A stretch of 64,000 bases of DNA from Candidatus Bathyarchaeota archaeon (GTDB lineage Archaea > Thermoproteota > Bathyarchaeia > Bathyarchaeales > Bathycorpusculaceae): positions 64,001-128,000 of the forward strand of contig CAWDYC010000003.1 of the NCBI GenBank assembly GCA_963806535.1, in the 5' to 3' direction. A program made the translations under genes and the position numbers. Below, piece after piece: positions 31,093 to 51,431 of this stretch. The notes beneath the pieces were generated by a model. It saw nothing but the letters and a program-made list of their open reading frames with translations. It searched no databases and was not told where the DNA came from. The stretch's first letter is position 1, and each line of letters begins with the position of its first letter.

Positions 31093-31160
31093 TTATTATC
31101 AGCATCCACATGTTTTAACTCTGACAAAACTTAAGTTCAGAAGTACCTTATTTCTTTAAA

Positions 31161-32408: not shown

Positions 32409-32418
32409 GAAACTCAAA

Positions 32419-34370: not shown

Positions 34371-34398
34371 AGAGGATTACTTCCGCTGAAAGTTCTTT

Positions 34399-34659
34399 TT
34401 ACTCCTGAATAGCACTGCACATATTAACTATTTCGTGGTAAACTGCTTCAACTTGCAAGGGATCAAGGCGAAATTCGACCGCTTTTTCCTTCACTCGTTT
34501 AAAGACCTCATTTTCTCTGGTAACATCCCTTATGGGGAAGCTTTTCTTTTTCTTAATCAAACCAATCGCCGAGCATGTTTTTGCTCTTTCGCATAGGGCA
34601 GCTATGATTTGTTCGTCAATTTCGTCAACTCTTTTTCTTAATTGTTGAATTTCATCCAT
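34399..34659 (-). CDS. aroQ: chorismate mutase (AroQ)
   Basis: LRKRVDEIDEQI..ER..K..RDVTRE. Confidence 0.9.
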   Translation of the reverse strand: MDEIQQLRKRVDEIDEQIIAALCERAKTCSAIGLIKKKKSFPIRDVTRENEVFKRVKEKAVEFRLDPLQVEAVYHEIVNMCSAIQE

Positions 34660-35768: not shown

Positions 35769-37047
35769 TTTCAGCTCCTATTTGTTTTAGATGAGTGAAG
35801 AACAGCGGATAAGACTTTCTAACGCATTGTGCGTTTTGAATTGTTGTTTGGTTTTTTGCACCTAAAGCTGCAACTGCACAAGCCATTGCTATACGGTGGT
35901 CATTGTGCGGATTAATCACCGCACCATGTAGATTACATGGACCTTCAATGGTTAAAGTGTCAGAGTCTACATTTATTTTTGCACCCATCTTTTTGAATTC
36001 AAGATAAAGTGTTTTTAGTCTGTCCGACTCTTTGAGTTTGAGCCGTCGGGCGCCCGTGATTTTGGAAGTTCCTTTTGCATAGCATGCAAGCGCTGTACAG
36101 ACTGGAACGAGGTCAGGAATATTTTTTGCATCAACATTGACGGGCTCAAGCGAATTGCCTGTTCCAGTTATTTCAACGCTGTTCTCGCATACTTTTCCAT
36201 TAATACCCATTTGCTTAAGGATACCCAGAATCGCTTTATCGCCTTGGGGGCTGCAGTATTCAAGATTTTTAATTTGAACGGTTGAATTGGTTATGGCTGT
36301 GGCAGCCAGGAGAAAGGCTGCAGAAGAAAAATCACCGGGCACATTAAAGTCATAGGGCTTATATGTTTGGTTAGCTGGAATGTGTATAAGTTTATAGTTG
36401 TCGTAAACTTCTATTCTGATTTCATGTTTGGCAAGCACGTCCCACGTCATTTTGACGTAGTCTGCAGATTCAAGGGGCGATTTTAATGTGATTTCTGTGT
36501 CTACTTTCGCTATTGGACAAGCAAACATTAATCCTGAAATAAACTGTGAACTAACATCTCCGGGAATAGAGGTTTCGCCTCCAAGGATACCGCCGCCCTC
36601 AACAAATACAGCATTTTTATTGCCGAGTTTTTTAATGCGAACGCTAACACCGAGATCATTGAGACTTCTAATTAAAGGTTCAATGGGTCTGCGTTCAAGT
36701 GAACTGCCAAAAACCAAAGTTGAAGGGTCAGGCGCTAGGGCAGCTACTGGTATCATGAAACGCAAGGTAGCACCTGATTCACCGCAGTCGATAGGTTCTT
36801 TGGCATTCGTGACTGGGTTTGCACCTGTAACCGTCCAGCATTCTTCAGCTATTACTACATTTGCGCCTAAAGCTGTAATGGCCCTCAGGGTTGCTTGGGT
36901 GTCATCGGATAGAAGAGGGTTTGAGATCTTAGAAATTCCATTGGATAGAGCAGCAGCTATGAGCATTCTCTGGGTATAAGATTTTGATGGAGGGGCACAA
37001 ACTTCGCCGCTTAACTTTTCAGTTTTCTTGATGATTACATCAGTCAT
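35743..37047 (-). CDS. aroA: 3-phosphoshikimate 1-carboxyvinyltransferase (EPSP synthase)
   Basis: PPSKS, GESGATLRF, SSQF, KESDR and DHRIAMA. Confidence 0.97.
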   Translation of the reverse strand: MTDVIIKKTEKLSGEVCAPPSKSYTQRMLIAAALSNGISKISNPLLSDDTQATLRAITALGANVVIAEECWTVTGANPVTNAKEPIDCGESGATLRFMIPVAALAPDPSTLVFGSSLERRPIEPLIRSLNDLGVSVRIKKLGNKNAVFVEGGGILGGETSIPGDVSSQFISGLMFACPIAKVDTEITLKSPLESADYVKMTWDVLAKHEIRIEVYDNYKLIHIPANQTYKPYDFNVPGDFSSAAFLLAATAITNSTVQIKNLEYCSPQGDKAILGILKQMGINGKVCENSVEITGTGNSLEPVNVDAKNIPDLVPVCTALACYAKGTSKITGARRLKLKESDRLKTLYLEFKKMGAKINVDSDTLTIEGPCNLHGAVINPHNDHRIAMACAVAALGAKNQTTIQNAQCVRKSYPLFFTHLKQIGAEIVGGKFDR

Positions 37048-37049
37048 TA

Positions 37050-37922
37050 TCAGAGCACCTTGGCTTTCTCACTGTTCAAATGGGTTTTCAAGATTTCGCC
37101 GCCGTATTTTCGCAACGCCGCTATAACTAAATCAACCTTGTCATTAGGAGTTACCGCTGTTACTGCTGGTCCTTTGCCGCATAATCCAGCTGCTATTGCT
37201 CCAGCAGCCAAAGCATCTACAGCTATAGTAGGATTATATCCCGAAGCTGAGGAATAAATCAAACCGTTAAGCGTCAATGCCCCCCAAACATTGCCCTTCA
37301 AAGCCTCATTGTAAGCGACTTCAACGAGCGGTTTAATTGTTTGCAGCCGCTTGACATTGGAATCTGCTGTGTAAGATTTTTCGGACGGTACGTGGAACAA
37401 AACTATTAAATCTTCATCAAATGGTAACTTCTTAACTATTTTTCGATTCAAATTGTCAGTAATTATTGTTCCACCGAAATATGAAGCACAAGCGTCATCA
37501 AAAGCTCCTGTCACAGTCACTTTTGAGTCAAAAGCAGCATCAATGCCCAAATTTACGACATCAAAATCAGGAAGCGTTTTGCCTAATGCCGCAATCGATG
37601 CGAGAGCTACTGCGTTTGCCGCTACACTACTGCTTTTGAGCCCTTTGGCAATTGGAATGTTCGACCAAGTTTTTATTTTTGCGCCAAAACTTTTTTCTAA
37701 ACTGAACTTTTGAAGGACTCTGCACACCGTTTTTTCTATCAGAACAGTGCTTTCTTTTGGGTCCGAAGTTATTTCCGCTTTGAAAACATATGGTTCATAC
37801 GTTAATTCGACTTCAGCCTTAGTCCATAAATCAACACCAAAAGCTGCACCTTTACCAAGCGCAATTGCATTGACAATTGTTGCAGCGCCATGAGCTATTG
37901 CAGTAACTTTACCAGTCAACAT
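37050..37922 (-). CDS. aroK: archaeal (GHMP) shikimate kinase
   Basis: ATIVNAI, GLKSSS and TGAFDDACAS. Confidence 0.95.
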   Translation of the reverse strand: MLTGKVTAIAHGAATIVNAIALGKGAAFGVDLWTKAEVELTYEPYVFKAEITSDPKESTVLIEKTVCRVLQKFSLEKSFGAKIKTWSNIPIAKGLKSSSVAANAVALASIAALGKTLPDFDVVNLGIDAAFDSKVTVTGAFDDACASYFGGTIITDNLNRKIVKKLPFDEDLIVLFHVPSEKSYTADSNVKRLQTIKPLVEVAYNEALKGNVWGALTLNGLIYSSASGYNPTIAVDALAAGAIAAGLCGKGPAVTAVTPNDKVDLVIAALRKYGGEILKTHLNSEKAKVL

Positions 37923-38780
37923 TTACACCTTTAACAAGTGATTAAGCGCCGCCTTCCTCATAACTTCAACTGGCGCCTTGCAAGCAGTCCAGATTTCGAA
38001 TGATGCAGCCCCTTGATAAATTAGCATTTCAACCCCACTCACCACTTTAGCGCCTGCCGCTTTAGCATCCTTGACCAACTTGGTTTCAATTGGATTGTAA
38101 ACTATGTCCATTACAGCCAAATCAGGTTTCAACCATTCTAGTGATATGGGGGTTTGGTCCGCGTTCGGTTCCATTCCTATCGAAGTAGCATTAATGAGTA
38201 CATCTGCTCCGGCAAGATTGACTTTGATCGTTTTTGGGGTAAGTGCACCCGCGCTGATTTTTTTGTTAAATTTTAGTTTTAGGAGATTTGTAAGCTCTGT
38301 CACTGGTTTAAGTGTTCGATTCAAAATTACCAGTTCATCGGCTTCTTGCGATAAAGTGTATGCTATGGCTTTTGCAGCGCCACCTGCACCGAGCAACAAT
38401 ATTTTTTTGCCCTTCACCGCAACGCCATTCTGCTCAAGCGCATTTAATGCCCCGACACCATCAGTGTTAAAACCGAAAAGTCTCCCATCTGTGTTTAAAA
38501 TGGTATTAGCAGAAGCTATGGTTTTAGCAGTTGGGTCCAATTCATCCAAGTATTTGATGACCTCGTTTTTATGTGGCATCGTTACGTTTAACCCTCGAAT
38601 GCCTAAAGCTCGCATAGCGCTTATCGCATTTTTAACCTCAGTGGCTTTTACTTTGAACGCTAAGAAAACGTAATCAATTTGTAATGCACGAAACGCTGCA
38701 TTATGAATAATTGGGCTAAGAGTGTGTTCTATAGGGTCACCGATTACACCACACACTTTTGTTTTGCCCGAAATAACCAT
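37923..38780 (-). CDS. aroE: shikimate dehydrogenase
   Basis: HTLSP, NVTMPHK, NTDG, GAGGAA and MLIYQG. Confidence 0.96.
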   Translation of the reverse strand: MVISGKTKVCGVIGDPIEHTLSPIIHNAAFRALQIDYVFLAFKVKATEVKNAISAMRALGIRGLNVTMPHKNEVIKYLDELDPTAKTIASANTILNTDGRLFGFNTDGVGALNALEQNGVAVKGKKILLLGAGGAAKAIAYTLSQEADELVILNRTLKPVTELTNLLKLKFNKKISAGALTPKTIKVNLAGADVLINATSIGMEPNADQTPISLEWLKPDLAVMDIVYNPIETKLVKDAKAAGAKVVSGVEMLIYQGAASFEIWTACKAPVEVMRKAALNHLLKV

Positions 38781-38782
38781 TT

Positions 38783-39466
38783 TTATTTTGCTCCTAAGAG
38801 GTCGTATGCAACTCTCATATCTCGGATGCTTATTTGTCCCGACGCGGTTTCGTTGCTTTGATCTAGTGAAGCAAAAGTAAAGAAGGCGCCAAACATAGGC
38901 GAGAGAAGTCTAGAAACCTTACCGTCTTTGCCCATGCAGAAACAGACAATTTTCACCCTGCGGGGTATTGCGGAAATGAAGTTTAGCACCGTCAAGTTGT
39001 CTTCAATTTTTTCAGCTGTTGTTGCTATCTTGCAGATAGCAGCTCCGCTGGAAATTTCCTGTTTTAGAATGTTGCCCATTTCAGAACTGCTTAATGTGCC
39101 ATCAAACTTGTGGAAGGAAACGATTGGTTTAGCGCCCAGTTGCTTGAGTTTGTTAATTGTTTCTTTATATTTTGGACTTGACATATCGACGTCAATATAT
39201 TCGAAGCCGTTTTTGACTGCGTTTAGCAGCGTTTGTTGACGCTCGGTTTCTGTTCCGGAGAAACTGCCTTTTTCGCTTTGTAGCTTGTTTGTGGCAATGA
39301 GTGGGATTCTTGTGGTTTTTGAGATTTCGGATAGGTTTCTGGAGGTTTCAAGGCAGTCTAGCCTTACCTCAATGAAGTCAGCTTTGGCTTTCTCCGCCCG
39401 CTCAATTAGATTTACAGCTTCGTCATTACTTTTTGGGAGAATCGAGACACAGATTCTCGGGATCAC
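38783..39466 (-). CDS. aroD: type I 3-dehydroquinate dehydratase
   Basis: EVRLD, SFH, KIA, CMG..GKVSR and ASGQI. Confidence 0.92.
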   Translation of the reverse strand: MIPRICVSILPKSNDEAVNLIERAEKAKADFIEVRLDCLETSRNLSEISKTTRIPLIATNKLQSEKGSFSGTETERQQTLLNAVKNGFEYIDVDMSSPKYKETINKLKQLGAKPIVSFHKFDGTLSSSEMGNILKQEISSGAAICKIATTAEKIEDNLTVLNFISAIPRRVKIVCFCMGKDGKVSRLLSPMFGAFFTFASLDQSNETASGQISIRDMRVAYDLLGAK

Positions 39467-40506
39467 TTTTCTATCACCGTTTCTTCAGGCACTGATACGC
39501 CGAAGTGTCGGCCTCCTTTTGCAGATAAGTGCACGAGAACTTCATCGTTTGGTTTTAGCTCTGTAACAGGTTTTGAAGCTTGCGGAGTAACTAATCTTAT
39601 GGTTTCGGCGTTTTGAAGTATGGTTTTTATTTTTGTACCTTCGGCTTCGGCTTCAATGAGGATTAGGGGGCGGAACTCTATTTTGGATCTGCCAACATTT
39701 GTTATTCTGACTTTTCCTTCTCTGTTGATAATTAAAACTTCGTCACCCGCTTTTAATTCTGAAAGGTAACGGGTGCTTTGCAGCGATGTTAATGTGTAGT
39801 GTGAGGCAGGTCCAGCGTTTACTCGGAAAGGTCTGGATTGCACATAAGGGTTTTCGTTTACTTCAGCTTCGACAAGGAAGAAGCCAGCAGATTGACAGCC
39901 GACAAGCATTCCTTCTCCAGGAACCATCAAATCAACAGTATCAACGCAGACTCTAGCACCTGTTCCGATCGGTTTTATGGATAAAATTTTGCCCGTAATC
40001 AGAGGCACCTTCGGCATCTGCCCCTTAACAACTTTAACGGTTTTGGCAAGCTCATCTGGATTTGAAGTTTTAAGCAAAACGCCGTCTGTTCCCAATTCCA
40101 AGGCTTCAAGAACTACCTTAGCATCCTCAGCCGTTGTTACTTCGGCAACCAGTTTGCTCTTGCCGCCGTGAGCTTTAGCAATTAAGTTTTCGAGCGGAAT
40201 TACTCGCCAATCGAGACAGTTAATAATTATATAGTCAATCCCAAGCTCGGCAGCCTTAGCTGCATTATTCTCGTCTTCTTTGCCGTTTATGTTGATTCTT
40301 ATGGCGGTTTTTTTGCCCTCATTTTTTAGTTGGACAATTTTTTTCTCATTTATGCCGTGAAGAAATGTTACGTTTAATTTGCCAGAGCGGTTACTTGCTT
40401 GTTCACCTTCAAGAACTACGTCAGCATTTTCATGGGCAAGACTAAGCAAACTTTCATGTTCTTGCGGTGAAGCCGCTTCGTCTATTTGTACCCAGAGTTC
40501 CTTCAA
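39463..40506 (-). CDS. aroB': 3-dehydroquinate synthase II (archaeal AroB')
   Basis: WRVIPLENLIA, RVCVDT, RPFRVNAG, QNAET and GRHFG. Confidence 0.95.
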   Translation of the reverse strand: MKELWVQIDEAASPQEHESLLSLAHENADVVLEGEQASNRSGKLNVTFLHGINEKKIVQLKNEGKKTAIRININGKEDENNAAKAAELGIDYIIINCLDWRVIPLENLIAKAHGGKSKLVAEVTTAEDAKVVLEALELGTDGVLLKTSNPDELAKTVKVVKGQMPKVPLITGKILSIKPIGTGARVCVDTVDLMVPGEGMLVGCQSAGFFLVEAEVNENPYVQSRPFRVNAGPASHYTLTSLQSTRYLSELKAGDEVLIINREGKVRITNVGRSKIEFRPLILIEAEAEGTKIKTILQNAETIRLVTPQASKPVTELKPNDEVLVHLSAKGGRHFGVSVPEETVIEK

Positions 40507-41294
40507 GCTTTTTCACCGAGAATTTTAAGCGCTTGTTCCACGCTAACTCCATCATGAACGATCGCTGACAGCGCTTTAACTATCAATGTTGGATTGTCAT
40601 GTTGAAACACATTTCTTCCAATTGAGAGCCCCGAAGCACCTGCATCAATTGCGTCATGTGTGGTCTGGAGAACTTCTTGAGATGTTTTACATTTTGGCCC
40701 TCCAGCAATAACTACTGGAACAGGACAGCTTTCAATAACTGTTTTAAACGTATTAACGTTACCAGTGAAGTTTGCCTTAATAATGTCTGCACCTAGTTCT
40801 GCGCCGATTCGGGCCGCGTGGGCAACCACATCAGCGGCATGTTCATTTTGAATTTTGGGTCCACGCGGATACATCATCGCGAGCAGCGGCACACCAAATA
40901 AGTCACATTCTTCAGCTACTTTGCCAAGAGTGCTCAACATTTTGTCCTCATCCTGCGCTCCAACGTTAACGTGTACAGAAACTGCATCTGCACCTAGACG
41001 TATGGCTTCTTGAACACTGCATACTTGGACTTTGCCATTTATGTTTGGGCTAAGATTTGACATACCTGACAACATTACTATTAATCCGGCGTTTCCCACG
41101 TTAACATGTTTAGCGATACCTTTGTGAATTAGCACAGCGTCAGCCCCGCCTTTGAGTAGATGGTTGATTATTTGCTGCATGTTAGCTAATCCTTGAATTG
41201 GACCAACTGTTACACCATGATCCATAGGTATGATTACCGTGCGGTTGTCCGATTGCAAAATTCTCTTTAATCGTCTCGTTTTTCCCTGATTCAT
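40503..41294 (-). CDS. aroA': 2-amino-3,7-dideoxy-D-threo-hept-6-ulosonate synthase (AroA', class IA aldolase family)
   Basis: PMDHG, LAMMYPRG, ELGADIIK, AGG and GRNVFQ; adjacent to DHQS II. Confidence 0.92.
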   Translation of the reverse strand: MNQGKTRRLKRILQSDNRTVIIPMDHGVTVGPIQGLANMQQIINHLLKGGADAVLIHKGIAKHVNVGNAGLIVMLSGMSNLSPNINGKVQVCSVQEAIRLGADAVSVHVNVGAQDEDKMLSTLGKVAEECDLFGVPLLAMMYPRGPKIQNEHAADVVAHAARIGAELGADIIKANFTGNVNTFKTVIESCPVPVVIAGGPKCKTSQEVLQTTHDAIDAGASGLSIGRNVFQHDNPTLIVKALSAIVHDGVSVEQALKILGEKA

Positions 41295-41309
41295 TTAATT
41301 CACCTTTGC

Positions 41310-42557
41310 TTATTTGGCGCTCCTTAATGAGTTTTTTATTAACTTCAAAGCCTTTTCCCGTTCATTCCAATCTACAAACAGCAAAATGCTGGATGTGATG
41401 GTTAATATGCCTGAAATATTTATGCCGCTGATTCTTAGGTCTTCGCTGATTTTTCCAATAATGCCATGGGTTGCTTCCAAGCCGACACCACTTGTTTTTA
41501 TGAAGACCAAGTCTTTTTTGACTGCCATAGCAATTGTTTCGTTATTGCTCTTTGTTATGTCATGAATGTTGTTGAAGAACATATCTAAGTTTTTCTCTTG
41601 AGAAACATAAAGGATAATTGAATTTGTAGACATAGACATGCCAAGCAAGAGTGAATGTTGCTTAGTTTCTTCAACCATTTCCTGAACGATTTGCGGATTG
41701 GCTGAGATTCCGTTTCCTATTACTGTTATTTCAGCGACTGGAAAAGAATTAGCAATTTCTGCATCTAATTCTGTTGCTAATGCGCCTGTAATTATTGTAC
41801 CCTCTTCGGTAAGATTGCCGTGTGCATGGTTGATTACTCGGATGTTGATGTTTTTGGGTTTGTACTTCAAGGCTTTGCTATGGATAAATTTAGCGCCTGA
41901 ATCAGCGAGGCCCACTAAGGTGTTAACGTCAATTTCTTTGAGGCGTTCGGGGTTGGAGACGATTTTTGGGTCACCTGACATTATGCCGTCTGCATCCGTT
42001 ACTAACACGATTTCGTCAGCGCCCAATGCTTCAGCTAGAACAAACGCCGTTGTATCGCTTCCGCCTCTTCCAAGCGTGGTAATTTTGCCATCTTTAGTTT
42101 TACCAAGAAAGCCAGCAACCACAGGTATAACACTCCTCTGCATTACCGGCAATACACATTCACGAATGTTCTTTTCACAATCTTTCAAGATTGGATTCGC
42201 ATTTTGGAATGCTGAATCAGTTATTATTGGCCAGTTGCTATCGATTGGATCAAAATAGCAAGATTCTGCCCCATTAGTCTTTAAAGCTGTTGAGAATATC
42301 CGAATGCTGGTTCGTTCACCCATTGATAAGATATCATCTAAATCTTTTTTCTCCAATTTACCTTTTGAAGCGTTTTTAGCAGTGGTCATGAGAACATCGG
42401 TTGTTTTGCCCATCGCTGAAACAACAACGGCAACACGTGTGCCTTTTTTGGCTTCATTCATAACGGCATCTACCGCTTTTAAGAGTCTATCGTGATCGGC
42501 TAAGCTAGAACCACCAAATTTAACAATAATTGTTTTACAAATGCCAGTCCTTTTCAT
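41310..42557 (-). CDS. lysC: aspartate kinase (first gene of the aromatic operon)
   Basis: KFGGSS, VVSAMG, TLGRGGSD and DPKIV, with ACT domains. Confidence 0.92.
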   Translation of the reverse strand: MKRTGICKTIIVKFGGSSLADHDRLLKAVDAVMNEAKKGTRVAVVVSAMGKTTDVLMTTAKNASKGKLEKKDLDDILSMGERTSIRIFSTALKTNGAESCYFDPIDSNWPIITDSAFQNANPILKDCEKNIRECVLPVMQRSVIPVVAGFLGKTKDGKITTLGRGGSDTTAFVLAEALGADEIVLVTDADGIMSGDPKIVSNPERLKEIDVNTLVGLADSGAKFIHSKALKYKPKNINIRVINHAHGNLTEEGTIITGALATELDAEIANSFPVAEITVIGNGISANPQIVQEMVEETKQHSLLLGMSMSTNSIILYVSQEKNLDMFFNNIHDITKSNNETIAMAVKKDLVFIKTSGVGLEATHGIIGKISEDLRISGINISGILTITSSILLFVDWNEREKALKLIKNSLRSAK

Positions 42558-42576
42558 ATTGATACACCCATGCTTT

Positions 42577-42614
42577 GCCCAGAACTTTTCTTAAAGAACT
42601 TTTCAGTTCTGGGC
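42577..42614 (-). promoter_or_regulatory. alternative RNA hairpins directly after the leader stop codon (putative attenuator switch)
   Basis: Perfect 10-bp inverted repeat GCCCAGAACT (42577-86) / AGTTCTGGGC (42605-14), with internal direct repeat AGAACTTTTC (42581-90 and 42595-604). Confidence 0.7.
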
Positions 42615-42698
42615 TTAAGAAAAATAACGATAAAAGTAGTAGTCGAAGCTAAGTAATTGTGCTGCGTTGCTTTCTTTGTTTAGTATGAAATTGGACAT
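42615..42698 (-). CDS. putative aromatic operon leader peptide MSNFILNKESNAAQLLSFDYYFYRYFS
   Basis: 27-aa ORF between the promoter and lysC; 7 of the last 10 codons are Phe/Tyr; stop is 57 nt upstream of lysC. Confidence 0.8.
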   Translation of the reverse strand: MSNFILNKESNAAQLLSFDYYFYRYFS

Positions 42699-42736
42699 TG
42701 GAGCTTCGAATCCTTGCTGATTGAGACGTTATCCAG

Positions 42737-42753
42737 AAAATATAAGCATTTCG
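42737..42753 (-). promoter_or_regulatory. putative BRE/TATA promoter of the aromatic operon
   Basis: Minus strand CGAAATGCTTATATTTT, about 40 bp upstream of the leader ATG. Confidence 0.6.
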
Positions 42754-42768
42754 GATTTAGACTACAGT

Positions 42769-43691
42769 TGTTCTATCTAGAAATTCGGTAACACTTTCTC
42801 TATATGTTGGAGAGAGTGCGAGGATTTGGAGCGGGATTGGGAGAAGCTTAGAAAATGGATTATTAGACGGCGGTTAGAAGGCACAGCTGTTTGCTCGATA
42901 TGTACTCAAGCGAAGATAAGCCGGAAAGTATTCTATTTTTGGTGGAACCGATATCAAGCAGAAGGGTGGGGTGGTCTTCAGGAGAAACAGAAAGGCCGTC
43001 CATGTGGACCAAAACTTGACGAGACCTTAAGGAAAAAAGTTGTAAAGTTAAGGGAACGATACGAGTGGGGTCCAAACAAAATAGCGGGACATCTTTGCCA
43101 TTTAGGCTTCACCATTGACCATAACCAAGCTTACCATATCATCTGTGAAGCAGGTTTGAATCGTCCCATAATCGAGCCCAGAAAGACATGGGGAACAAAA
43201 CGTTTCCAACGAGAACATAACAACAGTCTTTGGCAAGCAGACTTCAAGCTCTGTAATGATGATTGGTGGATGATAAGTTACCAGGATGATCATTCAAGAT
43301 TCATCACTGGATCAATTAAAATTTGGAGCCCTACCGGTGAGAATGCTATGTTGCTGCTGGACAGAGCTGTTAAACGGTATGGAACTCCAAAGCAGATTCT
43401 GACGGATCAGGGAACTCAGTTTAAACCTGCAAGGGGAGAAGTATCAGCATTTGACATTCGCTGTAATGAACTTGGAATTGAGCATATCACTGCAAGTGTT
43501 CGCAGGCCTACTACCTGTGGCAAAATTGAAGCTTTCCATAAAGCGTACGAGCTGGAATCTCATCTCTTCAAGGAGCATTGGAGTTTCATACGCTACTACA
43601 ACTATACAAGGCCACACGAAGGAATAAACGATTTAACGCCAGCAGAAATATACCTCAAAGACCAAGTGTTACCCATTTTCTAGATAGAACA
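42769..43691 (+). mobile_element. IS481-family insertion sequence, 923 bp
   Basis: 28-bp terminal IRs (42769-42796 / 43664-43691, 2 mismatches, TGT..ACA ends); identical 15-bp flanking direct repeats GATTTAGACTACAGT (42754-42768 / 43692-43706). Confidence 0.95.
42826..43683 (+). CDS. IS481-family DDE transposase
   Basis: HTH, then WQADFK, DDHSRF, TDQGTQF, GKIEAFH and YNYTRPH. Confidence 0.95.
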   Translation: MERDWEKLRKWIIRRRLEGTAVCSICTQAKISRKVFYFWWNRYQAEGWGGLQEKQKGRPCGPKLDETLRKKVVKLRERYEWGPNKIAGHLCHLGFTIDHNQAYHIICEAGLNRPIIEPRKTWGTKRFQREHNNSLWQADFKLCNDDWWMISYQDDHSRFITGSIKIWSPTGENAMLLLDRAVKRYGTPKQILTDQGTQFKPARGEVSAFDIRCNELGIEHITASVRRPTTCGKIEAFHKAYELESHLFKEHWSFIRYYNYTRPHEGINDLTPAEIYLKDQVLPIF

Positions 43692-43786
43692 GATTTAGAC
43701 TACAGTTTAACCGCTAATTAAGCGATTCGCTCAGGTATAGTCTTTATCAATTCGACCGTGCATAAGAAAATGAGGACTAAATTCGA

Positions 43787-44617
43787 ATGAATTCTCAAAA
43801 CAGCTGGCAAGAAATCCTAATGCAATGCAAAAACAAAGTACAAACTTGCATTCGGCCATGTCTCAAGACCATCAGGGAACCCCAACCTAATTTGGGTATG
43901 GGTGCTGGTGGTGACGCTACGAAACCTGTGGATTTGGCGGCTGAAATGGCAATCGTGGAAACTTTAAAAGAGAATGGTGTTTCCTATACCTTGATTAGTG
44001 AGGAGTCGGGGGTAAAAAAATTCGGCGCAGAAGCCGAAAGTTGCTTTATTACTGTTGACCCGATAGATGGAAGCACTAACTTCATGCATGGATTGCCTTT
44101 TTATGCCTGTTCAATCGCAGTCTCTAGAAAACGAACCCTAAACGACGTCTATGCCGGGCTAGTTGCTGATCTTGCCCATGACGTAACCTACACGGCTTAT
44201 GAAGGCAAAGGTGCGTATCGAGACGGCAAAAAAATAGAAACTTCAAAAACCGCTGCTTTAGAGGAAGCAGTCGTAGGTTTGGACTTAAACACGTACAAAG
44301 TAAAGGAAGTTGCGCCTAAACTAACCGATTTAATCGCGAAAACAAGGAATATCAGACATTTTGGTGCCAACGCGGTTGAATTATGTTACGTAGCAAATGG
44401 CTTAACAGATGCATTTGTTGATATTCGCGGGAAACTGCGCACGACAGACGTAGCCGCTGGGTTCTTAATCCTCAAAGAAGCTGGCGGAGTAGTAACTAAG
44501 CCGGACAATCAAGAGTTAAACGCTGAATTGGATCCCAAGCAAACCATCAGCTTTGTAGCCTCTGGCAACTTGGAAATTCACAAAAAAATCATAAGCTTGG
44601 TAAAATCTACATGCTAA
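43787..44617 (+). CDS. suhB: inositol monophosphatase / FBPase class IV
   Basis: ISEESG, VDPIDGSTN and DVAAG. Confidence 0.9.
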   Translation: MNSQNSWQEILMQCKNKVQTCIRPCLKTIREPQPNLGMGAGGDATKPVDLAAEMAIVETLKENGVSYTLISEESGVKKFGAEAESCFITVDPIDGSTNFMHGLPFYACSIAVSRKRTLNDVYAGLVADLAHDVTYTAYEGKGAYRDGKKIETSKTAALEEAVVGLDLNTYKVKEVAPKLTDLIAKTRNIRHFGANAVELCYVANGLTDAFVDIRGKLRTTDVAAGFLILKEAGGVVTKPDNQELNAELDPKQTISFVASGNLEIHKKIISLVKSTC

Positions 44618-45453
44618 AATTGTTATGGCCAAATCCTGCAGCACTCGTAAAGTCGGAAAAAACTAAAACTCTTCTTATTGCTGACCCTCACCTCGGCTGG
44701 GAAACATCCCTTCAAGAAAAAGGCATCCATGTTCCAAGTCAAACGGAAAAAATTCTCAATAAATTAAAAGCAATAATTTCCAAATATCAGCCACAAGAAC
44801 TTGTTATTCTTGGCGACGTTAAATACACGGTCATTTCGAGCGAGCTGGGAGAGTGGCATGATGTTCCCGATTTTTTTGTTAAATTACAGGAATATGTTAG
44901 ATCCATTGCTATTGTAAGGGGAAACCATGATGCAAACATTGAGCCTCTGCTACCAGAAAACATCGAGCTTTTGCCTGCAACTGGAGCAATAATTGGTGAT
45001 ATCGGTGTTTTTCACGGGCATAAGTGGCCTTCGCCGGCTTTGTTGAAATGCAAAACTCTGGTTATGGGACATCTGCATCCAGTTGTCGTTTTCCGCGATC
45101 CAGCAGGATTTAAAATCACAAGACAAGTTTGGATGAAAGCAAACTGTAACACTGAAGCTTTCGGGAAGATTTTGTTGCAAAAACACAACATAAAAGTTAA
45201 AGGCACGGTTGCAAAAACACTGAAAGAACATTATGATGTTAGCCTTAAAGCTAAGGAAATTTTTATTATGCCTAGCTTTAACGATTTTCTAGGCGGCAGA
45301 CCAGTAAACGAAACAAGACCCAGAAAAGAAATCAACGCAGAATCGTTGATTGGACCGGTACTGCGTTCGGAAGCGGTGGATGTAGATAATTCTGAGCTTT
45401 TTCTTTTGGACGGAACTTATCTGGGTACTTTAAACCAATTGAGAACTTTATGA
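44611..45453 (+). CDS. metallophosphoesterase (calcineurin-like)
   Basis: ADPHLG, LGDVK, RGNHD, FHGH and GHLHP. Confidence 0.9.
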   Translation: MLKLLWPNPAALVKSEKTKTLLIADPHLGWETSLQEKGIHVPSQTEKILNKLKAIISKYQPQELVILGDVKYTVISSELGEWHDVPDFFVKLQEYVRSIAIVRGNHDANIEPLLPENIELLPATGAIIGDIGVFHGHKWPSPALLKCKTLVMGHLHPVVVFRDPAGFKITRQVWMKANCNTEAFGKILLQKHNIKVKGTVAKTLKEHYDVSLKAKEIFIMPSFNDFLGGRPVNETRPRKEINAESLIGPVLRSEAVDVDNSELFLLDGTYLGTLNQLRTL

Positions 45454-45531
45454 CTAAATTGAGTTTAGTGGTTAACTCTTATATTTGTGGCATGTTATAT
45501 GCATGATATAGTTTGAGGGAGGAAAAATAAA

Positions 45532-45687
45532 GTGAAACTAGTTACAGTATTATTACCGGAAGCTTATCTGGAAGGTTTAGATGAATTAGTTCGTGCAAAC
45601 ATGTACCCAAGCAGAAGCAGCGTAATTCGCTCTTCAGTGAGAGATTTGTTAAAGAAAGAACTTTGGGAAAACAAACGCAACCGTTAG
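45532..45687 (+). CDS. CopG/RHH regulator of the CdrS/aCcr1 type (51 aa, missed by ORF track)
   Basis: GGAGG SD; MKLVTVLLPEAYLEGLDELVRANMYPSRSSVIRSSVRDLLKKELWENKRNR*. Confidence 0.85.
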   Translation: MKLVTVLLPEAYLEGLDELVRANMYPSRSSVIRSSVRDLLKKELWENKRNR

Positions 45688-45695
45688 AAAAAAGC

Positions 45696-46463
45696 CTAAA
45701 AACTTTTCGCCGAAGCGCAGAGCCGACCAGCCTCTTTAGCGGGATCATCCGCCATCGTGATTTCTCGCCCCACAATAAGATAGTTAGCACCTGCCTTAAT
45801 TGCGGTGCCAACGGCTCCACCTTGAGCGCCAACACCGGGCGAATATATTGGGATTTCTTGACCAAGAATCTGTTTTATTTCCTTAATCTTTTCAGGGTAA
45901 GTCGCACCAACAACAACGCCAGCTGCACCCCATTTTAAGGCTTTTTTGGCAAAAGAAATATACTGTAATATTTTTTCGCCTGTTTCCGAGTCAATAATTG
46001 TTTGCCCGTAACCCTCACTTGCGCCTTTATGGCTCATGTAACAGAGAAGTATCACACCACGATTAAGCTTTTGAGACACTTCAAAAAGCGATTTCATCCC
46101 TTCATTCCATCCGACAAATGGGTTTGCGATTATAGAATCAAAACCTGCAGAATAATAGTATTCAGCTATTACCTGGTTGGTAGCGCCAATGTCGTTTACT
46201 TTAGCATCCATAATTGAAACCAGTCCTTGACTACGAATTTGGTCCACAAGTTGCTGAACGCCGTCAAATGTGCCTAGCGGAAGAACAAGATGATGATTTA
46301 TTTTTACCGCACAGATATAGGGCTCAACTTCTTTGAGAATTTTCTGTGCTTTCAATAACAGTTTCTTTCGATACTCAGGAGCTTGATACGGAAAATCCAA
46401 AGCCAAAATAATTTTGGAACATTTGCTGTTTGCTGCTTCCTGCATTTTTGCTTTAAACGACAC
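45696..46463 (-). CDS. pyrF: orotidine-5'-phosphate decarboxylase
   Basis: ILALD, DAKVNDIGAT, PGVGAQGG and VGR. Confidence 0.95.
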   Translation of the reverse strand: MSFKAKMQEAANSKCSKIILALDFPYQAPEYRKKLLLKAQKILKEVEPYICAVKINHHLVLPLGTFDGVQQLVDQIRSQGLVSIMDAKVNDIGATNQVIAEYYYSAGFDSIIANPFVGWNEGMKSLFEVSQKLNRGVILLCYMSHKGASEGYGQTIIDSETGEKILQYISFAKKALKWGAAGVVVGATYPEKIKEIKQILGQEIPIYSPGVGAQGGAVGTAIKAGANYLIVGREITMADDPAKEAGRLCASAKSF

Positions 46464-46693
46464 TGTTATGCCTTCTTGCTTTATCTTGTTAGGTGCTGAG
46501 CTATTTCATTTTTTCGTCTGCTTCAATCCAGTATAGTTCCCGATTCATATTGAAAAGCGTGTGTCAATTCAGCGATGGAATTCAGTTCAATATGTGTGCT
46601 TAGTGAAGCAAGCAGATTTGCTAAGAGATAGAGATGGTGAAAAATTACTACAACAAAAGAAGATGAAAAAATTCAAAAAATGGAAATTTGCTA

Positions 46694-47381
46694 TTATACA
46701 TTCCAGACATTTGAACTAACAAGTTGCCAAGTAACGGTTAGGTCGTACATCGGGTTGTTGTAAAATTGCTGGTTTATTAATTGAGTGAGCATTCCTGTTT
46801 GCCTATCGAAATAGACATAATCGTATTCAACACGCATTGTATTGCCTGTTGGATCTCTACTATCTTGAAATTCTTCGGCTATGCGCCAAAAGTTTCTGAG
46901 TCTAGGTAGAATCAGCATAGGACTGAGGCTGCGTGTCGTTAACAATTTGTTTATCAAATCCCTTAGGACTAATCAGGTCATTCTTATTCAGATTTGAAGG
47001 ATAAATAGCCCAAAATCCTGATGCATCAGTTCTATTTCCATTCGAAATGTCAATTGTCTGGGGATTTACAAATTGCGTTCCGTTCTGAAGGTCCCAAACT
47101 GTATTAAGCGTAACTCTGGTACCGCTGATCCCTGTTACTGTAACAGTATAATCTTTTGTATCGTTGTATATTGAGAAACCATCTGGAGTTACTGCATCCG
47201 GACTTGTTAAATTTGAGACGCCAGTTAGCTTATATGTGAAAGTGTCGCCAACATGAACACCAACCTTAATGGGTGACCCGGAAAACTGAGTTGCATAAAC
47301 GACTACTGCAGCTGAAACGGCTATTATGACTATTAGAATTATGGCAAAAAAGAGTCTTTTTGAGGAGTTTTTCTTGGGCAT
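46694..47381 (-). CDS. membrane-anchored secreted hypothetical protein (frameshift near 46905)
   Basis: N-terminal TM, GVHVGDTFTY and YFDRQTGML, split over two ORFs. Confidence 0.6.
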
Positions 47382-47555
47382 AACTCTAACATTGCATGGT
47401 TCATCTATTTAGTTGTTTTCCCAAAAACTCAACGAAAAATCAGGCAAGTTTAATTACAGAAAAAGCCATTTTTTCATTACTAAATAAAATATAAAACTCT
47501 TAAAAGGGTAAATTTAAGAGAAAGAACAGTTCATAAGACACTTCGGTGGAAAAAA

Positions 47556-48608
47556 TTGTATTGCCATAAATGTGGGACCCAACTTCCAGAAGATGCAGCC
47601 TTCTGCGTTAAATGCGGAACAAGCACTGGATCAAATTCTCCTTCGCCAACTTCAACTTCTGCAGCTCCAGTAATTGCCGCTTCAGGAGTTTCATCCTTGA
47701 AGTGTCCTAGCTGTGGAGCGCCAATCTCGCCCAAATTTGGAGAGATGGTCATAACCTGCGAATATTGCGGCAATGCAGTAACTCTTGGTGCCGAAGGATG
47801 GACAAATATTCAAAAGCAAACGATGCTTGATTTGAAAGTTGCCACCATTGACCAAGTGAATTCAATAATTACCCCACTTATGGATAGGGGACTTCTACAT
47901 AGACACCTGCATGAGGATTCTACGCAGGAAGAGATGAGCCTAACGTTCGTGCCTTATTGGATAGTAAGCGTTTCAGCCCGAACAAGCATAATCGCTACCG
48001 ATGAAACGGGGCAACTTGCGCAAGCCGCTACAACTGCTGCCTTGATGGGTGTAGTTTTTGGCGGAATGAGTGGAGGTTTCGGAGGACGAGGTGGATTCGG
48101 TAGACGTTCTTTTGAGAAGCAGTTTGCACTTGGCAACCCATTTTCAGGAATTCTAGGGTTGAAGCGGATAAGAATAATGGCTTGGGGAATGGGGATGGGT
48201 ATGGGAGGCGGAATGAAAAAAACCGAGCAGATGGACATGAACTACAATTTCCCTGTAATTGCTCTAAAAGCTCTTACAGATTATCAGCCACGCGATTACC
48301 AATTCAACCTAGAAAGCAGGGAACTGTTCGACATTTCCAAATTACCAAAGGGAGTTAAGATACTTAACGGCGACATCAGCGAAGAAGTAGGAAAATCACA
48401 AGCTAAGACACTTGTGGATCAGCTTCAATCGCAAAAGGCGCATGAGAAATATCATATGATCCAATCGATACACACCGATTCAGATATTGGAGATGTAGAG
48501 CTGCTTCATGTTCCAGTCTGGTTTGCGAAATATGATCATAAGGGTAACAAAATAGTACTTGTCATCGATGCCAACTCTGGTATGGTTATCAATAGTTTCG
48601 GTCTCTAA
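47556..48608 (+). CDS. zinc-ribbon domain protein with Gly/Met-rich insert
   Basis: CHKC..CVKC and CPSC..CEYC; FVPYW and HVPVW motifs. Confidence 0.75.
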   Translation: MYCHKCGTQLPEDAAFCVKCGTSTGSNSPSPTSTSAAPVIAASGVSSLKCPSCGAPISPKFGEMVITCEYCGNAVTLGAEGWTNIQKQTMLDLKVATIDQVNSIITPLMDRGLLHRHLHEDSTQEEMSLTFVPYWIVSVSARTSIIATDETGQLAQAATTAALMGVVFGGMSGGFGGRGGFGRRSFEKQFALGNPFSGILGLKRIRIMAWGMGMGMGGGMKKTEQMDMNYNFPVIALKALTDYQPRDYQFNLESRELFDISKLPKGVKILNGDISEEVGKSQAKTLVDQLQSQKAHEKYHMIQSIHTDSDIGDVELLHVPVWFAKYDHKGNKIVLVIDANSGMVINSFGL

Positions 48609-48662
48609 TCCATTTTTCTAGAAGCATCTTAAAGAGAAATTGTTTTTTTTCCTACAAAAAAG

Positions 48663-48718
48663 TTAGGCATGCCTAAATATTTATTAGGGTCGCCTAAACC
48701 TAATTTAGGTATGCCTAA
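48663..48718. promoter_or_regulatory. three tandem DtxR/IdeR-type operator palindromes
   Basis: TTAGGCATGCCTAA (48663-76), TTAGGGTCGCCTAA (48684-97) and TTAGGTATGCCTAA (48705-18); 21-bp period; they flank the TATA-like TATTTAT and overlap the ATG. Confidence 0.88.
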
Positions 48719-49454
48719 ATTAAAAGCGTCCTCAAGCAACAGCATGCAAGATTATCTAAGAGCAATAGCCTCGCTGTCAAACAACGGCGACCCAGTCAAC
48801 ACAACCGAAATTTCACGATACTTAAGCATCGCACCGGCAAGCGTAACTGAAATGCTTAAAAAAATGTCCCAAAAAGGCTATCTCAGCTACTCTGCATACC
48901 ATGGCACATTTCTTACTCTAAAAGGACAAGCAGAAGCACAGAAAATAACCCGAAAACATAGACTTCTCGAAAGGTTTCTCTCAGATGTGCTTCAAATTAG
49001 AAAAGATCAAGTGCACGCTCAAGCCTGCGAAATGGAACATACATTATCAGATGAAGCAGAAGAATCACTTTGCCGCTTACTAAAACATCCAGACACTTGC
49101 CCCGACGATGGCAAAATAATTCCAGCCTGCGACCTACCATTCAAAACGTGCGAGGAATGCATTTCTCTACATAAGCAAGGGCTAGAAGAAGTTGGAAAAC
49201 GTCATGAGAACCTGCAGTCAATTTGTACCCTCAAATCAGGAGTAAACGCCAAAGTCTCGTTCATCAGAGGCGAGCATAGAACCCTTCAGAGACTTCTAGA
49301 TATGGGCCTAACTCCAGGGACTTCGATAAAAATTGAAAGAGTCGCGCCCCTCAAAGGTCCAATAGAGGTTTGCGTGCGAGGATCAAAAGTAGCTTTGGGA
49401 CAAGATATTGCCGCCAACGTGTTTGTAGAATCAATTCCAAAGAAGGCAGGATAG
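48711..49454 (+). CDS. DtxR/MntR-family metal-dependent repressor with FeoA domain
   Basis: [22 protein letters not shown] and ACEMEH; C-terminal [11 protein letters not shown]. Confidence 0.92.
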
Positions 49455-49456
49455 GC

Positions 49457-51431
49457 ATGTCATGCCATTCAGATTCTTCTAATCTTAAAAAACCAAAAAA
49501 TAATGGATCACGCTTAACCATAGCTTTAGCGGGAAACGCAAACGTTGGAAAAAGCGTTCTCTTCAATCAACTCACAGGTTCAAGCCAAATAATCGGCAAT
49601 TGGCCAGGCAAAACTGTTGAGAAAGCAGAAGGCACCCTTACATTTGAAGGACAAAAAATTACAGTAATTGACTTGCCCGGCATCTATTCTTTTTCAACAT
49701 TTGGGATGGAAGAACTTGTCTCGAGAGAATACATCGCCACAGAGAACCCTAACGTTGTTGTAAACGTGGTTGACGCGGCCGTTTTGGAGCGCAACCTGTT
49801 TTTTACAATGCAACTTATTGAAATGGATGCGCCGCTGGTTATTTGTCTGAATCAATTAGATGAAGCTAAGAAAAAAGGCATAACAATCAACCTCAAAAAG
49901 CTTGAGCAACTTCTTGGTGTACCCGTCGTTCCTGCTGTAGCCATAAGAGGCGAAGGAATATACGAACTTACCAAAACAGCCGTAAATGTTGCACGAGAGT
50001 GTGGCAATCACAAGGAACATTACCTCCGATACGGCGATGAAATTGAGCAGCGAATAAGCAAACTTGAACAAATAATTCAAAACGCCAATCTGAACCTTAA
50101 TTACCCTTCCCGCTGGGTAGCTATCAAACTACTTGAAAATGACCCTGAAACCAAAAAGTTAGTGGCATTTTCTGAAACTATCAACAAAACCTCTGATGCT
50201 TTGGCAGCTGAAATCTCTGCAATCCATCATGAACCTTCGTTTGCAGTCATTGCAGCAGAACGGTATAGCTTGGCAAGTAAAATTGCGAATGAAGTTCAAC
50301 ATCAAGCCGAAGTGCGAACTACCATTTCTGACAAGGTAGAGTGGCTAACTACTCACAGAGTGTTCGGCTACGTTATATCAGCCGCAGTAATTGCAGGTTT
50401 ATTACTTTGGACATTCGGCATTGGGAACCTGCTATCAGGTTTATTCTCAAACGGCCTCTCGTTTTTTTCACCTGTCAATCCTTCGCTGAGCGGATCAATT
50501 CAAGGTATTCTTTGGAACGGAGTTTGGGGTGGAGTGGTTGCAAGTTTGACGCTGATTATTCCTTTTGTTGTACCCTTTTACTTGATGTTAGCCATGATAG
50601 AGGATTCAGGCATTCTTACTCGTGTGGCTTTCATGATGGATAGTGCCATGCATAAAATTGGTTTACATGGCAAGGCATTGATACCCTTAATTTTGGGGTA
50701 CGGCTGCAATGTACCGGCTATTCGCGCTTGCAGAATTATGGAAACTAAACGCGAACGGCTCCTAGCTGACTTTTGCCATTACATTTGCTCCTTGTGCAGC
50801 GAGAACTATCGTCATTCTTGGCTTGGTAGCTGTTTTCTTGGGTCCTTGGTGGGCGTTATCGCTGTATGTCATTAACATTGCGCTTATTTTCATTCTTGGA
50901 AAAATAGCATTAAAAGTTGTTCCTGGGCAATCCACAGGCTTGATTATGGAGATGAAATCCTTCAAGGTACCTTCTATAAAGGTTGTTGCTAGACAAACTT
51001 GGGCGCGAACCAAATCTTTGATTTACATTGTAGTTCCGCTTTACATCGCTGGAAGCGTCGCAGTCCAAGGCTTATATGCAGTGGGAGTTCTGCAGCAAAT
51101 AAGCAACGCGTTATCACCCGTCACAGTATTTTGGCTTGGGCTTCCGTCAATAGCTGGTGTATTGCTTATACTCGGGTTCGTCCGGAAAGAAATGGTGCTG
51201 CTTGCGGCAGTTGCAATCTTTAGCACAACCAACCTAGCTTTATTCTTCAGCCACACACAACTATTCGTTCTTGCCCTTGTGAACATGATTTACATTCCAT
51301 GTTTGTCCACTGTTGCAATAATCGCGAAAGATTACGGTTGGAAAACCGCTATCATCATGTCAATCGCAAACTTCGCCGTTGCAATATTAGTAGGAGGAAT
51401 AGCATTCCGTCTTCTCTCCCCATTCATGTAA
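49457..51431 (+). CDS. feoB: ferrous iron transporter B (frameshift near 50770)
   Basis: [35 protein letters not shown] and YIPCLST. Confidence 0.93.

Follow-up and report, generated by a model that had tools for sequence, protein, structure and literature searches.

A conserved Phe/Tyr-rich leader ORF with a stop-adjoining hairpin ahead of an archaeal aromatic amino-acid operon: a candidate ribosome-mediated attenuator in Bathyarchaeia

In a stretch of 64,000 nucleotides from a Candidatus Bathyarchaeota archaeon (NCBI GenBank assembly GCA_963806535.1, contig CAWDYC010000003.1, positions 64,001 to 128,000; the whole stretch is called the window here), the minus-strand operon for aromatic amino-acid synthesis is headed by a short open reading frame (ORF) that ends in a run of phenylalanine (Phe, F) and tyrosine (Tyr, Y) codons and is followed at its stop codon by a stable hairpin. 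The first gene of the operon encodes an aspartate kinase (AK), termed aro-type here, which is a paralogue separate from the other AK-like genes of the genome. Comparison with related sequences indicates that this leader probably is translated, senses Phe and Tyr, and controls the aro-type AK and the aromatic operon in cis as a ribosome-mediated attenuator. The element itself is real and conserved, and it is almost certainly functional.

Results

The leader ORF and its hairpin in the window

On the minus strand, the sequence reads in order through a promoter element made up of a B recognition element (BRE) and a TATA box, the leader ORF, the hairpin, a Shine–Dalgarno (SD)-like site and the AK gene, as follows.

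42737..42754, minus strand: BRE/TATA promoter element, CCGAAATGCTTATATTTT / CCGAAAYGCTTATATTTT, read from the sequence.
42702..42715, minus strand: probable 5′ untranslated region (UTR) with an SD-like AAGGA and the motif GGATTCGAAGCT, near-invariant within the genus.
42615..42698, minus strand: leader ORF of 27 codons plus TAA, MSNFILNKESNAAQLLSFDYYFYRYFS; ATG at 42698, TAA at 42617..42615.
42618..42650, minus strand: control-codon run S-F-D-Y-Y-F-Y-R-Y-F-S, with seven F/Y codons.
42577..42614, minus strand: hairpin adjoining the stop, GCCCAGAACU...AGUUCUGGGC; 5′ arm 42614..42605, loop 42604..42587, 3′ arm 42586..42577.
42565..42570, minus strand: SD-like TGGGTG of the AK gene, 6 nt past the hairpin and 7 nt ahead of the ATG.
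41310..42557, minus strand: aro-type AK, 415 aa, first gene of the operon, starting with the ATG at 42557; matched by the NCBIfam aspartate kinase models (E = 1e-110).
32419..41294, minus strand: ten further genes, namely ADH synthase, DHQ synthase II, aroD, aroE, archaeal shikimate kinase, EPSP synthase, chorismate synthase, chorismate mutase, aminotransferase and prephenate dehydrogenase.

An earlier note on this DNA had given the same coordinates and minus-strand layout, and all of it is borne out by the sequence: the 27-codon ORF carries seven Phe/Tyr and no Trp (W) in its last 10 codons, the 10-bp stem is present, and the operon consists of 11 genes for chorismate, prephenate and Tyr, with no trp gene among them. 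ADH synthase together with dehydroquinate (DHQ) synthase II represents the archaeal entry into the shikimate pathway from aspartate semialdehyde and 6-deoxy-5-ketofructose 1-phosphate (DKFP). The leader lies between the BRE/TATA element and the first gene of the operon, and the spacing of about 38 nt from that element to the leader ATG, which contains the AAGGA and GGATTCGAAGCT, would place the leader ORF inside the transcript. Positions G4–T19 of the BRE/TATA block are invariant across the 23 aligned sequences of the genus, and TATA-like boxes could be recognized by eye at a comparable distance 5′ of the leaders in other families.

The hairpin of the window begins at the first base past the stop codon, spans 38 nt with 10 bp and an 18-nt loop, and folds with −16.2 kcal/mol (z = −4.07), a stability matched by 0 of 200 shuffled sequences. 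It is the only structure that stands out, since the whole-leader fold is no more stable than its shuffles (z = −0.28). Its sequence is single-copy in the 2.95-Mb genome, so that an origin from a repeat or mobile element was rejected. An inner 6-bp AGAACU/AGUUCU stem closed by a GAAA loop had also been described; this is specific to the window and is not kept in relatives, which mostly have T5–T7 at that place. The inner palindrome has two loose matches in the window against 0.3 expected. The window loop (42587..42604, minus strand) reads GTTCTTT where the nearest relatives (L003, L147, L161 and L199) have T6–T7, and the duplicated AGTTCT is therefore a recent point change within a former U-tract. 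The Rfam 15 covariance models gave no relevant match at E values up to 10 in 42200..43200.

A scan of the 3701 short ORFs that lie upstream of long ORFs in the whole genome returned a single case of an aromatic run followed immediately by a stable hairpin, namely this leader. In two whole-genome scans, no His-, Trp-, Leu- or Thr-run leader of the same architecture was found, and four eye-catching short ORFs turned out to stand in unrelated contexts.

Conservation of the element with the aro-type AK

For the comparison, the orthologous AK was located in relatives and the upstream DNA was read for an F/Y-rich short ORF plus hairpin. The search of 41 genomes gave 27 AK loci at 49–100% identity, 24 of them from the genus (own genome included) and three from other families of the order. 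An F/Y-rich short ORF whose stop stands directly before a hairpin is present at all 27 of these aro-type AK loci, and one genus genome, which is 65% complete, is without such an AK. In an order-wide draw of 30 loci centred on aroA′, the element was found in 24, about 1.3 kb upstream and just ahead of the AK; the flanks of the other six were too short, and among five of these that were re-examined, four have the element and the fifth has no AK upstream. The dependence on the AK is seen most directly in 20 aroA′ loci with 5 kb of upstream DNA, where the element occurs in 12/12 loci with the aro-type AK and in 0/8 without it. Named records of Candidatus Bathyarchaeota/Bathyarchaeia (Bathy-6 and Bathycorpusculum lineages) with enough upstream DNA, a set that partly overlaps with the loci above, contain it in 57/57 cases.

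Thus, the element tracks the AK paralogue and not the aro genes, and is present even where the AK is not beside aroA′. The leader was not found at canonical AK paralogues, neither in three loci nor at the two copies of the own genome. The leader-bearing AK does not head the aro operon in all cases: in family f11 (G052:C3 and G123:C18) it is divergent from aroA′, and in another genus of the window's family (G063 and G144) it sits on a different contig, with aroA′ there having no leader.

At the level of the class, the element is present in 22 of the 39 usable loci, and a weak aromatic short ORF was seen in one of three further class-level loci. In other classes of the phylum, an aromatic-rich short ORF precedes the aro-type AK in 11 of 17 loci, some of them weak. 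The comparison that the earlier note had proposed for relatives, namely to look for a short ORF with a C-terminal F/Y cluster, variation that keeps the frame, and covariation in the hairpin, has a positive outcome at the genus, order and class levels and in part at the level of the phylum, and the note's reading of the element as a ribosome-mediated attenuator is supported.

Coding signature of the leader

The leader statistics were taken from 80 distinct leaders and the hairpin statistics from 78, with a core family of 44 leaders. Over the last 12 residues, the 80 leaders contain 29% F, 34% Y and 1.4% W (64% F+Y+W), compared with 9.1% F+Y+W in the long ORFs of the genome. Both F and Y occur in every one of them, and the final aromatic codon is always 0–2 codons ahead of the stop. 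Both synonymous codons of F and of Y are in use (TTT 148, TTC 134, TAT 225, TAC 100). Leader length varies from 12 to 42 codons, the start is ATG in 76/80, and an SD-like match of at least 4 nt is present at −17 to −4 of the start in 48/80, compared with 10% of control windows. The alternative frames +1 and +2 are open over the same span in only 24/80 and 10/80 leaders, respectively.

Within the genus, the leaders have 24–29 codons and the frame is kept at every aro-type AK locus, whichever of TAA, TAG or TGA serves as the stop, which in 23/24 loci is 0 nt from the stem or overlaps its first base. In the 23 aligned genus sequences, the promoter, ATG, aromatic block, hairpin arms and AK SD are conserved, whereas about 16 N-terminal codons of the leader are not; the N-termini are fully replaced even between species whose AKs are 94% identical. 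Members of one family repeatedly share aromatic motifs at the C-terminus, for example SFDYYFY. Between lineages, N-termini and hairpin sequences change, and what persists is the reading frame, an aromatic C-terminus and the junction of stop codon and hairpin. Composition and frame are evidently kept between families while nucleotide sequence is not; this is the hallmark of attenuator leaders, and not that of a small folded protein or a site of protein binding. The conserved frame, the ATG and the SD-like site together suggest that the leader ORF is translated. The exact leader peptide has no match in a collection of 15 billion proteins.

The motif GGATTCGAAGCT of the 5′ UTR (42702..42715) is complementary to AGCTTCGAC of the S-F-D codons (42642..42650, both minus strand), and one-sided changes in relatives preserve this pairing, either by an A-to-G change giving G-U or in the combination of GGGTCGAAGC with GCTTCGAC. 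The UTR:ORF duplex is better than 95% of its shuffles in 24/44 core-family leaders and in only 5/36 others. Pairing of the leader SD with the start of the F/Y run was therefore rejected as a general feature; where present, it could allow the leader to be translated only once.

The hairpin is an RNA structure that varies between lineages

In the 78 leaders, the stem starts −1 to +5 nt from the stop, with a mean minimum free energy (MFE) of −17.1 kcal/mol and z < −2 in 77/78. The sequences that achieve this are diverse, with 40 distinct arm pairs, for example GCCCAGAAC/GUUCUGGGC in the genus, GCCCAGGCGU/ACGUCUGGGC in a sister genus, and GCUUCGAGGCCU/AGGUUUCGAAGC, GGAGAAACCG/CGGUUUCUCC and GGGGAAAGGGC/GCUCUUUCCUC in other families. 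An arm is complementary to its own partner at 8.03/9 positions, and to partners from other lineages at 4.59/9. Within the genus, the arms are nearly invariant, and their changes are one-sided and yield only G-U. Since the 702 basal pairs include 42 G-U pairs, and the stability of the sense strand exceeds that of the antisense strand in 57 cases and falls below it in 18, the hairpin is a structure of the mRNA strand and not a DNA palindrome. An SD-like site was also read by eye about 3–9 nt past the hairpin in other families. The A/T-rich loops of the core family prompted the idea of an internal TATA box for the AK, which was dropped, as the loops of other families are not A/T-rich.

Ribosome position determines the predicted fold

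We have computed constrained partition-function folds with a ribosome mask covering −15 to +13 around the A site, for 58 leaders and then for 30 deeper leaders. In the set of 58, a mask placed on the first or a middle aromatic codon leaves the 5′ arm of the hairpin paired (p = 0.96), while with a mask on the last aromatic codon pairing falls to p = 0.10, and at the stop codon to 0. Because the 5′ arm is kept early in the run and lost at its end, the element would report the passage of a ribosome through the F/Y run.

The SD and start codon of the AK do not respond in this way. Their unpaired probability in the 58 leaders is 0.43 in the free RNA, 0.43–0.49 with a stalled ribosome and 0.46 with the ribosome at the stop; among the 30 deeper leaders, SD accessibility is higher upon stalling in six and lower in six. 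In the window, the AK SD lies 6 nt outside the stem. Since the predicted accessibility is independent of the ribosome state, sequestration of the SD is unsupported and was rejected as the output, in both sets of leaders. The same folds speak against control through access to the AK (lysC) start, one of the two outputs that had been envisaged for this locus, and the GCCCA:UGGGU pairing that was to bring it about, although possible on paper, never competes with the 10-bp stem.

U-tracts and a proposed output step

In this genome, a run of at least five T occurs within 60 nt at 30% of gene ends and at 9% of mid-gene positions, and a run of at least six T at 17% and 2%, respectively. No hairpin was seen to precede these gene-end T runs (mean MFE −2.25 kcal/mol). 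They agree with archaeal terminators as described in a published study, namely U-tracts of 4–7 U recognized by aCPSF1 with no hairpin required (PMC8716108). A second paper describes the RNA as going straight from the exit channel of the polymerase into FttA (PMC11616081). A consensus terminator scan of 30000..49999 gave 26 sites, against 19.3 ± 4.7 expected.

Similar tracts accompany the leader hairpins, although a 5′ leader is not a place where they would be expected. At least four T stand in or just after the hairpin in 58/78 leaders; at least five T are present in the loop of 30/44 core-family leaders, and at least three T directly past the stem in 15/34 leaders outside the core family. The earlier note had found no hairpin-plus-polyU terminator here, and this holds for the window, where the hairpin is separated from TGGGTG by AAAGCA, but not for several other families, which have a hairpin followed by U3–U6 and then the SD. 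Its further suggestion that the control codons form the regulated U-tract is unlikely on grounds of timing, because RNA polymerase would transcribe them before the ribosome reads them. We also considered the hairpin plus U run as a terminator that is anti-terminated by a ribosome at the end of the ORF. This model was rejected, because the first round of translation would then cause read-through when Phe and Tyr are plentiful and termination on starvation.

Starvation must raise biosynthesis, and stalling is predicted to leave the stem folded, so that the folded stem would have to be the ON state and the melted stem the OFF state. In the mechanism that we propose, translation of the leader peptide would report the charging of tRNA-Phe and tRNA-Tyr. 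When Phe or Tyr is scarce, the first ribosome would lag in the aromatic run, and the hairpin could form behind RNA polymerase; by snapping shut there, the stem would deny aCPSF1/FttA single-stranded U-rich RNA at the exit channel, shielding the nascent RNA and the neighbouring U-tract from hairpin-independent termination. When both are plentiful, a ribosome at the last codons or the stop would hold the 5′ arm single-stranded, leaving the loop, 3′ arm and U-tract exposed for termination. This protective hairpin, set against U-tract/aCPSF1(FttA) termination, is our preferred output step, but we hold it tentatively, at somewhat less than an even chance.

In two families of other classes (L206–L210), the leaders end in F-G-P before the stop and, as read by eye, a small stem GGUCCC-UAA-GGGGACC holds the stop codon in its loop, with a 3′ strand that also serves the large hairpin (GGGGACCGG / CCGGUUCUCC) as its 5′ strand. 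Judged from these sequences, they are genuine alternative structures as in bacterial attenuators, in the manner of 1:2 versus 2:3 competition, and the competition of the small stem with the large hairpin argues that the latter would be the conditional ON state.

A number of points weigh against the attenuator reading or its proposed output. The simplest coupling arguments would have a ribosome close behind the polymerase give more read-through, the opposite of what a biosynthetic operon needs, and the favoured model would thus require the hairpin to invert the coupling logic. A T run of at least four is missing in or after the hairpin in 20/78 leaders, including the window itself, whose loop has TTCTTT where the close relatives L003 and L147 have T6. 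Core-family leaders have their U-tract in the loop, where it is single-stranded even with the stem folded. The window and its genus have only one conserved stem, with no terminator/antiterminator alternative. The element is absent from 17 of the 39 class-level loci, belonging to three families. The genome has no comparable leader at its other amino-acid operons, so that the organism does not use such control generally. Finally, the sequencing runs matching 40500..43000 comprised no RNA run and 19 DNA entries with small shares.

Translational attenuation as an alternative output

The most serious rival concerns the output step and falls within the attenuator reading itself. As in erm or cat leaders, the hairpin might hinder initiation at the AK ribosome-binding site 3–9 nt behind it, and ribosomes dwelling on the last aromatic codons during Phe/Tyr shortage would hold it open and so increase AK translation. 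The position of the final aromatic codon, 0–2 codons from the stop in all 80 leaders, is well suited to this, as is the G+C-rich foot of the stem, where slight encroachment by a ribosome abolishes pairing (the p of 0.10 given above). The hairpin always ends near the SD; in a genus from a different class, the stem was seen by eye to have its 5′ strand inside the ORF, so that any ribosome in the run would melt it; and the model needs no U-tract, which suits the 20/78 leaders that have none. However, the SD and start codon are outside the stem and their predicted accessibility stays constant with ribosome position in both sets of leaders. Seven or eight upstream aromatic codons would moreover reduce the share of time that a starved ribosome spends at the last ones, and both the enrichment of T runs and the competing small stem of the two other-class families would be left unexplained. 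We therefore regard translational attenuation as rather unlikely.

Explanations without an attenuator

Protein-binding sites offer a different account, in which a palindromic transcription-factor operator, or a hairpin bound by a Phe/Tyr-sensing RNA-binding regulator, does the work and the open frame is incidental to U/A-rich sequence. TTCGAA-type palindromic cores do occur ahead of the ATG and at the S-F-D codons of the core family, the arms of the hairpin hardly vary in the genus, and an additional protein regulator may operate alongside. Yet in every lineage a frame of suitable length is open up to the foot of the hairpin despite unrelated nucleotides, the other frames are mostly closed, and the F/Y codons vary synonymously. 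The G-U pairs and the greater stability of the sense strand contradict a DNA palindrome, and the UTR:ORF complementarity is not general. We consider this account quite improbable.

A functional aromatic-rich micro-protein (for example, a membrane or regulatory one) that is merely co-transcribed, the hairpin being an unrelated stabiliser or processing site, would explain a conserved ORF with an SD-like site and ATG, and the recurrence of motifs such as SFDYYFY within families. Across families, however, composition is kept without any sequence motif, the N-termini turn over, and leaders can have as few as 12 or as many as 42 codons; hairpin sequences differ, yet their exact junction with the stop codon is kept; and the enriched residues are the very products of the pathway. 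The peptide is also without a match in the protein collection mentioned above. A micro-protein is accordingly very improbable.

A chance ORF beside a chance hairpin in an A+T-rich intergenic region has a negligible probability: short ORFs are indeed common in this genome (the 3701 scanned above), but conservation at 27/27, 12/12, 22/39 and 57/57 loci refutes it, as do the z values of the hairpin in the window and in 77/78 leaders and its being the sole ORF-plus-hairpin of the genome scan.

Relation to known systems

Bacterial amino-acid operons are controlled by leader attenuators such as trpL, pheL (pheA, pheST), hisL, leuL, thrL and the ilv leaders. Like these, the present element has a short ORF that belongs to the 5′ leader of a biosynthetic operon; its codons for the end products are clustered and reach to within a few codons of the stop, its N-terminus is free to vary, and the position of the ribosome is proposed to set the RNA structure. 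In contrast to them, the window and its genus have a single stop-adjoining hairpin in place of the mutually exclusive 1:2, 2:3 and 3:4 stems, the window lacks a hairpin-plus-U-run terminator (the genome's own terminators being hairpin-free U-tracts), the host is an archaeon, two amino acids would be sensed at once (F and Y, in 80/80 leaders), and the first regulated gene encodes an aspartate kinase. The element would thus share the sensor of the trp, phe and his attenuators but not their terminator/antiterminator feature, and would represent a different expression platform in another domain of life.

In the translational attenuators of erm and cat/cmlA, the downstream SD is inside a stem and the stall depends on a drug. 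The leader ORF adjoining a stem-loop just ahead of the regulated gene is common to both, whereas here the SD is outside the stem and of constant predicted accessibility. Archaeal aromatic and Trp genes are also controlled by TrpY-type repressors, which bind DNA at the promoter. Both would regulate archaeal aromatic amino-acid biosynthesis, but through a translated leader in the one case and a promoter-bound repressor in the other, and trpE of the present genome has no Trp-rich ORF upstream.

Factor-dependent leader attenuators of bacteria include tnaC with Rho, mgtL/mgtP and corL. The proposed mechanism resembles these in that the position of the leader ribosome would gate the access of a termination factor, with no intrinsic terminator required. 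It differs in the factor, since Rho is a helicase and the putative archaeal factor aCPSF1/FttA is a U-tract-recognising nuclease (PMC8716108, PMC11616081). In mycobacteria, a preprint (bioRxiv 10.1101/834739) describes poly-cysteine leaderless short ORFs as Cys-responsive attenuators. These too are reported as amino-acid-enriched short ORFs at the head of a polycistron for the matching pathway, non-classical and found by conservation; they are bacterial, leaderless and specific for a single amino acid.

For Archaea, a Haloferax small-proteome paper calls its ORFs in 5′ UTRs reminiscent of bacterial and eukaryotic leader peptide genes, and two archaeal ribosome-profiling papers go no further than to describe upstream ORFs as reminiscent of leader genes or as not well characterized in Archaea. 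A full-text literature search in an incomplete library found no precedent for an amino-acid-sensing leader peptide in Archaea and bacterial leader peptides only, in line with the earlier note, by which leader-peptide attenuation is not known to be experimentally established in this domain.

A wider claim can be made, which as a whole is doubtful: the element may be the first amino-acid-sensing leader-peptide attenuator in Archaea, old and widespread, being present in most Bathyarchaeia with the aro-type AK and in some other classes of the phylum, and may at the same time combine a stop-adjoining anti-terminator hairpin, a platform unknown in bacteria, with an AK isozyme controlled by Phe and Tyr. 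Such an isozyme would feed the archaeal aspartate-semialdehyde route to the aromatic amino acids, and it would make sense because the aspartate pathway of these organisms leads on to the aromatic amino acids as end products.

In bacteria, the functional coupling of transcription with translation has its textbook proof in leader-peptide attenuation. Archaeal coupling involves a polymerase resembling that of eukaryotes and a terminator of the CPSF73 type. A natural case that is conserved and comes in dozens of sequence variants offers a handle on the crosstalk of the ribosome with archaeal RNA polymerase and aCPSF1/FttA, as well as on the evolution of regulation by tRNA charging and on aromatic amino-acid budgeting in the uncultured Bathyarchaeia. 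It is also a potential compact Phe/Tyr-responsive part for archaeal genetics.

Other observations

In class-level families without the element, the same AK is preceded by another short ORF that is conserved. In f26 (L106–L109, L112, L113, L116, L118, L123 and L124), an SD GGTGAAGA stands before M-G-D-x-x-F-G-D-x-x-Y, at a distance of about 250 nt from the AK. In f35 (L111, L114 and L115, and L138, L140 and L142 of another genus), the upstream short ORF reads G-Y-I-F-G-D-Y-I-Y-G-E-x-H-W-L-Y or is the 9-codon M-G-G-H-L-Y-W-H-K. These ORFs of f26 and f35 may be another type of aromatic leader.

Three records labelled Methanocella sp. (L189), Candidatus Sulfotelmatobacter sp. (L190) and Nitrososphaerota archaeon (L191) contain the same AK at 70% identity, together with a typical Bathyarchaeia leader and a GCCCAG...CTGGGC hairpin. 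Their contigs are probably mis-binned or mislabelled.

At the trp locus of the own genome (C4:352230..353685), no Trp-rich ORF stands upstream of trpE, which appears split into two ORFs of 201 and 218 aa, with stop codons interrupting the family match; a frameshift or a fault of the assembly may be the cause. Just upstream of trpE, TGTAC...GTAC repeats resemble TrpY-type operator boxes.

On the other side of the operon promoter, an IS481-family transposase ORF (42826..43683, plus strand, E = 4e-51) is divergent from the leader and lies about 70 nt upstream of its BRE/TATA element. Beyond about 42770, in the upstream direction, the closest relative L003 has unrelated sequence, and the IS481 insertion therefore abuts the promoter of the operon.

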